In this document: positions 30,301-33,300 of the stretch, in pieces | Numbering within the stretch: the first letter of the stretch is position 1 | How the letters are laid out: the number at the start of each line of letters is the position of its first letter | Assembly (NCBI GenBank): GCA_963675525.2 | Contig: CAXXSL010000016.1 | Coordinates: 131,671-195,670 of the forward strand | DNA: 64,000 bases | Source: Anaerohalosphaeraceae bacterium | GTDB lineage: Bacteria > Planctomycetota > Phycisphaerae > Sedimentisphaerales > Anaerohalosphaeraceae | Direction of reading: 5' to 3' | Position numbers: made by a program

Positions 30301-33300
30301 TGGCGCTGTCTCGGCTGAGCTCGTGATTCTGGGCATAAAGGTCCTGCGGGTCGAGTCCTTCCCACCACTGTCCTTTGCCGTCGGCCTTAGTGAGCTTGCC
30401 ATCGTATGATATGCCTGCGAACTCGCCGTTGGCATCAGCGCCCTGTGAGGATTCATACCATCTCCAGGCATGTGCGGCGTGAACGCTTACACCAAAACGC
30501 AGGCCGTGTTTTTTGGCCGCTTCGGCCCATCCGGCAATGATGTTTTTCTTCGGGCCGACGGCGACAGAGTTCCACGGCTGATATTGGCTGTCCCACATGT
30601 CGAGATTGTCATGGTGATTGGCCATGGCAAAGAAGTATTGCGCACCGACACGTTTATAAAGCCCTACGAGTTTTTCCGGGTCCCATTTTTCCGCCTTCCA
30701 TTCATGAATCACGTCTTTAAAACCGAATTCCGACGGATGGCCGTAATGGGCAACATGGAATTTATTTTGATCCCAGCCTTCAATATACATGTGGCGTGCA
30801 TACCAGTCACCTTGCTGGGGCTGGCATTGCGGCCCCCAATGTGCCCAGATACCGAATTTAGCATCTCGAAACCATTCCGGACATTCGTATTGCTCCAACG
30901 ACTTCCACGTCGGTTTAAATGGGCCCTTCTGCATGGGCTCAGCTTTATCACTGACTCTGGATACAACCGTCGGCATCTCTTCCAACTCGGTTGTACACCC
31001 CTGAAACGCAAGCGCAGCGACAATTAAAATAAAAAATGGAAAAATTCTTTTGATAGGCATTTTATTTCCCCCTTCAACTCTAAGGTAAAAATATTTTCAG
31101 GGTACAGAAAAATACGAAGAGGGGATTCGCTGCGCGGCGCCTTCGGCGTCGACCCCCCGTGAAAGCTGCCTGGCATCTTTGGGGTTCGAATCCCCACACG
31201 ACTTCACCGGAATCTTATATTTCACAATTTGCAAAAACGGAGAAGGGGGGATTCGAACCCCCGGTAGGAACAAGTCCTACACAGCCTTTCCAAGGCTGCT
31301 CGATAAGCCACTCCGACACCTCTCCATAACTTCTTTGTTTTATAAGACTTAAAAAGAACTGCCGGGCCATAAAGCACCCGGTTGAAGGGGCATTCTATCA
31401 AAAACCCCCCTTTGAAGCAATGAGTTTTTTGGAATGCTGAAACCAATTTTAAACACGGCCTGCTGTTGATATTGCCCGATCCATTTGTCGTGACCGCTGG
31501 GGCCAGAAATATTGACGGAGATCATCTTCGGAGGGCAATTGCCGGGATGCATGATCTCCTCGAAGCAGTTCGTGCAATTTTTCTACCAATCCAGCGACCG
31601 ATCCGTCATACATATAATCGGCCTGCCGCCCTGCCGCAATGCTTTGGATGATGTTCGGATAGGACAGGCGGTTCGGCAATACGGGATAGCAGCCTGCCGC
31701 GACGGCTTCCAGAACACCAATGCCGAAAAATTCGTGATTGGCGGTCGAGACGACAATATCCGAATTCGCTAATGCCCTTTCGTATTCGTCCCGGCTGGGT
31801 TGATAGCCCCAGCGGTCAATATGCTCGGCAAAATAATCTTTGGCCCAGTCAAAAACCTCCGGCTGGTCGCGGAACTGCTCACCAATCACATTCAGACGAA
31901 AATCAACGCCCTTGGCTTTAAGGATTTTCATGGCCTCAAAAAAATCTTCGGGATTTTTGTCGTGCTCCCAACGCGCCGCCCAGAGAATCCGCAGCGGGCC
32001 TGCCGATGGTTCATTTTTTGTTTCAACCGGTACAATCCCCGGCGGATGAATGGATGACTTATCACGGATTTCATCGATAACCTCAACCGGCTGATAGTCC
32101 GGCATCCGCTTGAGGAATTGTCCGATCGCCTCCAGGAACTCGTCGCGGTGAAAATCCGAATTGAACCAGACGGCATCCGCCGCCATTGCCGTCGTAATGT
32201 TCGTCATACAGTATTGATAATCCCGCTCAGACTCCACCTGTACCGGATAGGTCAGTTGGTTTTCGTGAAAGTAAACGACTTTCGGCAACCGGCGAACAGA
32301 TTCATCAACCAAGCCGCAGAACTCCGCCAGGTTCAGCATATCCGAACAAAACAGAACGTCCCATTGCCCGCCCTGACCAACAAGAGCATTAACCTGTTGC
32401 GCAAAGGTGATCGCCGCGTGTCGCATACGCCATTTCCACTTGTTCGGCGGCAGTGTCAACAACGTAAACTCATGTTCACTGTGCTTTTGCCAACCGTCCA
32501 GAAACGCCTTATGCGACCCGCCATAGTATGCTTCGAGTGTCAATGCTTTCATAGACCGACAGAATAGCGGAAAACATTCATTAATCAATTGTCTTTTTTG
32601 AGGACTATCAGTGTGATCTGATTGCGGCTGCCGAGGCGCATCGGCGGGCCCCATGTACCGGACCCGGTCGACACAGACAGAAACATGCCATCAATGCGGT
32701 GAAGACCTTTAAGGTATTGAAACCGCGTTTTCACCACCCAGTTAAAGGGCCATATCTGCCCGTTGTGTGTATGACCCGAAAGCATCAGATTGACGCCCGC
32801 TTTTGCCGCCGCGTCAAAGCCTTCCGGACGGTGATACAGAAGAATCGTATATTGTGTCGAATCAAACTGCAAGTTCGACAAAACCTGCTGGACCTGCATG
32901 GGATTTTCACTGTCATCAATCCCGATTAATTGAATCCCTCTAAATTCGGTCACTTCATTGCGCAGCGGAATGACCGGCGTTTCTTTGAGCATAGTCATCA
33001 CGTTGTCCAATCCGACGTAGCGTTCGTGATTGCCGGTAACCCAATAAGCCGGAGCTTTCAATTGCTTCAGACAGTGAAGTGATTCGGTCGTTAAATCCCC
33101 CCCCGGATCCAGCAAGTCGCCCGTAAACAGCACCACATCCGGATTCAGCGCGTTGGTTTTTTCGATCAGACGCGCCAGATGCCGTTGACTGACCGAACCA
33201 AGATGAATATCACTCAACTGGACAATTGTTAGATCTGCGTCAATTGGCAGTTTCAGACGCCGTATTTCAATCCGCATGGCATTGAGAAATGAATAGACCG

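Follow-up and report, generated by a model that had tools for sequence, protein, structure and literature searches.

In the available passages of PMC10690763 and PMC11755703, queuosine that bears a sugar is described for animals, while the form given for bacteria is glutamyl-queuosine. The locus considered here raises the question whether a bacterium, too, puts a sugar on this base of its tRNA. In the window (i.e. the whole stretch of 64,000 nucleotides that was analysed, from an Anaerohalosphaeraceae bacterium) lies a gene for a glycosyltransferase, P0001, in which the survey's finding had seen a full-length bacterial orthologue of animal QTMAN beside a complete queuosine path. Animal QTMAN (GTDC1) is reportedly the tRNA-queuosine alpha-mannosyltransferase, as Zhao et al. 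are said to have described in Cell in 2023.

The protein and its likeness to animal QTMAN

P0001 is a genuine and intact member of the already catalogued QTMAN/GTDC1 (DUF3524) family. It scores 219.6 bits against QTMAN_N (cut-off 25) and, further along, 56.2 bits against the GT1 profile (cut-off 26.4), which places it in the Pfam family PF12038, and both the 367-residue frame and the two domains claimed by the survey were recovered (Table 1). An alternative in-frame ATG lies upstream at 32654; the start of the homologues is at 32552. A search of NCBIfam with P0001 returned no model at its cut-off, and a sequence search of the PDB no match. The AlphaFold model (pLDDT 96.6) has a retaining GT-B fold, and the best of the structural matches listed for it are just 10-19% identical.

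Table 1. Features of the locus, in window positions
Feature	Position	Strand	Remarks
QTMAN/GTDC1-family GT-B glycosyltransferase (P0001)	31449..32552	-	367 aa, MKALTLE...AGRV
QTMAN_N (Pfam), N-terminal acceptor-side domain, aa 3-173	32034..32546	-	E 2.9e-65
Glycos_transf_1 (Pfam), C-terminal donor-binding domain, aa 184-333	31554..32003	-	E 3.9e-15
W39-K-W41-R42-M-R44 basic/aromatic motif, start of helix 39-59	32421..32438	-	candidate anticodon-loop contact
H96-E-N-Q99 family motif	32256..32267	-	H96, E97 and Q99 invariant in 137 aligned sequences
R194...K199	31956..31973	-	K199 aligned with opossum K300
E274-x7-E282 motif of retaining GT4-type enzymes	31707..31733	-	from alignment; role presumed from GT4 knowledge
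tRNA-Ser(GGA), downstream of the gene	31237..31326	-	outside the system; adjoins the gene in 2 of 179 loci only
Terminator-like hairpin between the gene and tRNA-Ser(GGA)	31362-31381
Membrane metallophosphoesterase and redoxin genes, upstream	32585..34278	-	local neighbours; 4/179 and 10/179 loci

W39, W41 and R44 are common to the animals (at least 97%) and the non-animal representatives (at least 80%), R42 is invariant among the representatives, and the helix 39-59 is taken from the AlphaFold model. HENQ and FNS, which we take to be the signature of DUF3524, are both there (H96-Q99 and F130-S132), as are the Arg/Lys pair and the E-x7-E motif on the retaining GT-B fold; the roles of residues in P0001, that of E274-x7-E282 included, are presumed from what is generally known of GT4-type enzymes. 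Mapped to human numbering via the opossum alignment, K199 (opossum K300) would be the equivalent of human K296, which according to the available part of 10.64898/2026.06.28.735034 is needed for manQ (K296A).

When P0001 was compared with 121 animal sequences and 122 non-animal representatives, its identity over the whole alignment was 35% to Xenopus and 31% to opossum, values lowered by the linker of the animal proteins; the identity to carp was 37%. These figures bear out the full-length match to vertebrate QTMAN reported earlier. Domain by domain, the median identity to animals is 45% for the N-domain (n=121) and 46% for the C-domain, with a median of 47% to the 122 non-animal representatives, while none of the 13 other GT4s of the host genome significantly matches the N-domain. 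Of the columns that are invariant in animals, P0001 keeps 84 of 134 (44/76 in the N-domain, 40/58 in the C-domain). The shared positions comprise S13-H14, W39, W41, R44, YFHENQ, Y102-P103, D111, FNS, P151-D152, RWExDK, HEFFG and E282.

Among the 50 of 134 invariant columns that are changed is E401 of the animals, which is N300 here, and this asparagine in place of a conserved glutamate could be read as a sign of a vestigial gene, or an inactive one, in the host, as could its patchiness in the host's family (present in 3 of 5 genomes, with a split copy in one relative, G284). That reading is very improbable: the frame is open, all invariant motifs are intact, the model is predicted at the high pLDDT given above, and position 300 is itself variable in close relatives (glutamate in 64 of 120).

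Descent and distribution

The term orthologue, which the survey had used, is not borne out by the trees. In quick trees the animal sequences stand among proteins of Actinomycetota, Omnitrophota, Desulfobulbus and Krumholzibacteria, apart from P0001, so that other bacterial lineages are nearer to the animals, while a tree with GT4 outgroups in which all non-animal rows were held together is not rejected (p-AU 0.67). P0001 is therefore called a family member only. A transfer from bacteria to animals is not established either, since the same AU test does not reject monophyly of the non-animal rows.

PF12038 was found in 57 of 301 planctomycete genomes (19%), in agreement with the frequency of 959/4992 previously given for the phylum; 55 of these 57 carriers have a single match. 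In a second phylum 10 of 35 genomes had the family, none of 14 control genomes did, and it was not found in plasmids or GenBank phages. At E<=1e-30 the family comprises 1080 representatives. The closest relatives of P0001 are Phycisphaerae/Sedimentisphaerales records, and named bacterial relatives come from Planctomycetota, Actinomycetota, Desulfobulbus, Bacteroidota and Krumholzibacteria; the cultured carriers named among the matches are Anaerohalosphaera lusitana (61% identical) and Desulfobulbus rhabdoformis.

Many relatives are named in NCBI/UniRef as DUF3524 or as 'tRNA-queuosine alpha-mannosyltransferase domain-containing protein'. The family name for the bacterial genes is thus already in databases, where it was given automatically, and a tested function was found for no bacterial DUF3524 protein; its biological implication, sugar-modified queuosine in bacteria, is probable. 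Neither a bacterial homologue of QTMAN nor bacterial hexosyl-queuosine was the subject of any paper listed in our literature searches, and the founding Cell paper, Iyer et al. 2013, the 2024 MMBR review or supplements may mention bacterial homologues. A bacterial QTMAN does not appear in the available passages of 10.64898/2026.06.28.735034 (where the word 'homolog' is absent), PMC12518689, PMC10690763, 10.64898/2026.03.22.713446, PMC11755703, PMC11705514, 10.1101/2024.12.24.630238 and PMC7824862; in those of PMC10516641 the terms 'glycosyl', 'sugar' and 'hexose' are absent, and in those of PMC12632869 the terms manQ, galQ and gluQ.

Queuosine, sugar donor and tRNA-Asp

The queuosine path of the host was confirmed as far as QueC, QueF, TGT and QueG are concerned. 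QueA is split in the assembly by two small insertions (one of a single base, the other of two, by comparison with G222, of the same genus), and is intact in a 14.8-kb contig from the reads of run X1 (which may be the source sample) that lacks both insertions and is otherwise identical; a pseudogene is thereby ruled out. Besides queA (C13:202011-203011), rpoB (C19:10681-14398) is also split by small indels in this assembly (G000). Among 112 orthologue matches, 6 were flagged as frameshifted (one being a tandem pair) and 8 more have internal stops, and since frameshift errors thus affect about 5% of the genes tested, other 'pseudogenes' of this genome are suspect.

Within the window, three overlapping short frames at 28050-29066 on the minus strand (149, 114 and 127 aa; the third matches endoribonuclease L-PSP) are probably fragments of a single gene that indels in the assembly have disrupted, and similar broken frame pairs lie at 25029-26481 and 26498-27912. 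A second, shorter tRNA-Ser(GGA) at 27934-28007, 3.3 kb from the one in Table 1, flanks with it an alpha-L-fucosidase gene, an arrangement that is possibly an integration remnant.

The presence of the path says little on function, because nearly every genome of the sampled phyla has QueA, whether it is a carrier or not: QueA was found in 55 of 57 carriers and in 288 of 301 planctomycete genomes overall, and in a further sample in 12 of 14 carriers and 36 of 39 genomes overall, so that its co-occurrence has no power. In Actinomycetota, queuosine genes are patchy. As to the sugar, the donor of animal QTMAN is GDP-mannose, and a ManC-like GDP-mannose pyrophosphorylase is encoded in the host genome. 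This gene and the invariant positions kept in the donor domain are compatible with the use of GDP-mannose, sugar specificity being something that sequence alone cannot give.

According to the available passages of PMC10690763 and PMC12518689, gluQ and manQ are both formed on the allylic hydroxyl of queuosine, and mutual exclusion of GluQ-RS and QTMAN is therefore predicted. GluQ-RS was not found in the host genome. Across genomes, GluQ-RS-like genes (a proxy, i.e. a second or short GluRS-like match) occur in 15 of 56 carriers versus 95 of 240 non-carriers (p=0.09 with 5 ambiguous genomes dropped; p=0.10 with these as positives). Mutual exclusion is thus non-significant and simple replacement unsupported, a clean switch between the two being seen in family f61 alone. 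In carriers that also have GluQ-RS, the QTMAN-family enzyme could use another tRNA; in Aedes, manQ was mapped to a UA-anticodon (Tyr) fragment (PMC11705514, in the part available).

The single tRNA-Asp of the host (G000 C16:549091-549165) has G37-A38. Of the 301 planctomycete genomes, 274 were typed for tRNA-Asp, by patterns unequal in strictness, and 27 stayed untyped. Carriers have G37-A38 in 49 cases, A37 in 2 and both in 1, with 5 untyped, and non-carriers G37-A38 in 145, A37 in 76 and both in 1, with 22 untyped; i.e. 49 of 51 versus 145 of 221 single-type genomes have G37-A38 (p=2e-6 at genome level). By family, the gene is found in 25 of 75 G37 families versus 2 of 18 A37 families (p=0.08), and a permutation of family mean frequencies gives p=0.003 (one-sided). 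An RpoB tree of 107 genomes, in which each family and state is represented once, shows 17 changes of the tRNA state and 20 of the gene; independent pairs point in the same direction 3.5 versus 0.9 times (median p 0.25-0.5, non-significant). Exceptions to the link are G174, G122, G301 and G311, of which the latter two, carriers from outside this set, have A37-C38. Being post hoc, without a control gene, and failing the tree-aware test, the link is not taken as a result and stays a lead.

Some further observations concern tRNA-Asp itself. The unusual G37-A38 loop is found in about two thirds of the typed planctomycete genomes (195 single-type or mixed cases aside), and A37-C38 or A37-A38 in many separate lineages. 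At genome level, GluQ-RS-like genes occur more often together with A37-C38 (p=7e-7). Three genomes of family f17 (G012, G100 and G123) have a G37-A38 tRNA-Asp-like copy that is atypical and has a short variable loop; in G012 and G100 it stands alongside a normal A37-C38 tRNA-Asp.

The acceptor, and comparison with known enzymes

A search of IMG/VR with the QTMAN-family profile gave 13 loci with a diverged glycosyltransferase. Eight of these loci were scanned with Pfam: folE and/or queD/queE were present in 7, a DpdA/TGT-like gene came next in 3, and QueA was seen in none. An expanded search gave 313 relatives, and in 71 of the best 80 (phage GT-B family, loci L350-L442 of IMG/VR) a 7-deazaguanine gene lies within 6 kb (folE in 67, queE in 58, queD in 42 and dpdA in 29), as judged with profiles derived from the initial loci; at 50% identity, 10 of 13 clusters have such a gene. 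The QTMAN profile gives the phage proteins a median of 64 bits versus 10 for 21 generic GT4s, and the phage profile gives QTMAN proteins 72 bits versus -1. The two families come together in a quick tree against 19 generic GT4s (SH-aLRT 99), on long branches. In hhalign the phage family matches QTMAN at 99.7% over aa 62-330; with QTMAN_N alone the values are 18% for the phage family and 80% for a generic GT4. Presumably the phage enzymes act on DNA bases or nucleotides, and their place in 7-deazaguanine clusters predicts glycosylated 7-deazaguanine in phage DNA; no paper on such a base was found.

The phage link raises the odds that the clade works on 7-deazaguanine nucleic acids and leaves the acceptor unfixed, and because QueA was missing from the loci scanned, the wider clade is probably able to use other deazaguanines. 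The acceptor of P0001 might then be queuosine or queuine in the free form, a precursor, or some other modified nucleoside, and two carriers in which no QueA was found, G136 (99% complete) and G226 (88% complete), would fit this. In G136 the QTMAN-family gene is accompanied by TGT (matched as two pieces of a single frame), by QueG and by a GluQ-RS-like gene, and since TGT and QueG are kept, a gap in the assembly may explain why QueA is missing there. As the bacterial N-domain, moreover, is like that of animal QTMAN and unlike that of the phage family, such an acceptor seems distinctly unlikely.

Gene context was surveyed in 179 related loci. As the survey had cautioned, there is no conserved or tRNA-linked neighbour among them, the best real neighbour cluster reaching 10 of 179; a 24-locus 'cluster', which overlaps or resembles frames on the opposite strand of the gene, was set aside. 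The host gene lies outside any folE/queD/queE/dpdA cluster and adjoins the metallophosphoesterase, redoxin and tRNA-Ser genes. Other neighbours are local to lineages, i.e. a U32 peptidase (5 loci; L009, L052, L055, L140 and L141, directly downstream in one lineage), an RluA-type gene (3) and ThiI (1); the U32 peptidase family includes tRNA hydroxylases. Adjacent genes are glycosyltransferases in 3 of 131 cases, which is not the pattern of a GT4 in a polysaccharide or LPS cluster. A weak search for fusions gave 6 long matches, none of them with a queuosine-pathway domain. P0407 (1244 aa), a single sequence that may be a read-through, joins a full QTMAN-family enzyme to a GH2 beta-mannosidase-like module.

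This fusion, the lack of tRNA-related genes nearby, the coexistence with GluQ-RS-like genes and the many acceptors that GT4-type folds accept would all suit an acceptor that has no relation to queuosine, be it a small metabolite, a lipid or a glycan, with the fold recruited for tRNA only later, in animals. Against it, another glycosyltransferase lies near the gene in just 5 of 95 loci (of at least 8 kb), an argument that is weak because only 4 of 17 other GT4s of the host genome have one within 6 kb; most of them are orphans also, and the inference that an orphan gene is no glycan enzyme is weakened accordingly. An unrelated acceptor seems unlikely, the acceptor domain being conserved towards the animals as much as the donor domain and the nearest family found having ties to 7-deazaguanine genes.

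It is thus fairly probable that P0001 glycosylates queuosine-34 of tRNA as animal QTMAN does, glycosylated queuosine being its most likely product judging from the conserved domains; part of that probability falls to mannose on tRNA-Asp specifically, which taken by itself is tentative. What speaks for this reading besides homology is indirect. The enzyme would be a cytoplasmic, retaining GT-B glycosyltransferase. An NDP-hexose, most likely GDP-mannose, would bind the C-domain (R194/K199, E274-E282) and the anticodon loop a basic and aromatic surface of the N-domain (W39-R44, HENQ, Y102-P103, D111, P151-D152), upon which the cyclopentene hydroxyl of Q34 in a GUN-anticodon tRNA (most likely tRNA-Asp) would receive the hexose with retention. 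The prediction is a manQ-type product in all carriers, with mannose and tRNA-Asp in particular.

If this is true, a glycosylated tRNA base is present in many environmental bacteria, and the bacterial enzymes are compact, linker-free candidates for a first structure of the QTMAN family. The host copy itself, one among thousands, adds nothing unique. A wider picture is conceivable, and more doubtful than not: glycosylated queuosine may be a widespread bacterial tRNA modification and the ancestral job of the family the transfer of sugar onto 7-deazaguanine bases (of tRNA in bacteria and animals, of DNA in the phage sister family), paired in planctomycetes with the G37-A38 loop of tRNA-Asp as an alternative to glutamyl-queuosine, and the animal enzyme may be from bacteria.

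Among known systems, the solved retaining GT4s (sucrose-phosphate synthase 6kih, BshA 6n1x, MshA, PimA/PimB') share the GT-B fold with P0001 (Z 31 to 24) at 12-19% identity and take other acceptors; searches of the PDB by sequence and by structure gave no solved chain of the QTMAN family. GluQ-RS (YadB), the glutamyl-queuosine tRNA-Asp synthetase, has an unrelated fold and adds glutamate; it is the known bacterial route to a decorated Q34, on the allylic hydroxyl (PMC10690763, in the passages available), and coexists with the QTMAN family in some genomes. The phage GT-B family (a weak match to phrog_4356) is the closest family to QTMAN found, resembles it mainly in the donor domain and lacks the HENQ and WxWR motifs. 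P0001 is one of the bacterial DUF3524 proteins (PF12038), with nothing peculiar to this copy. Animal QTMAN has the same QTMAN_N and GT1 architecture, with about 45% identity in each domain, and shares with P0001 the motifs WxWR, HENQ, FNS, RWEHDK and HEFFG and the putative K296-equivalent lysine, whereas the long linker is found in the animal enzyme only. The hosts differ (a bacterium for P0001, the activity of which is predicted, and animals for QTMAN), as does tRNA-Asp, which has G37-A38 in the host of P0001 and C38 in humans.
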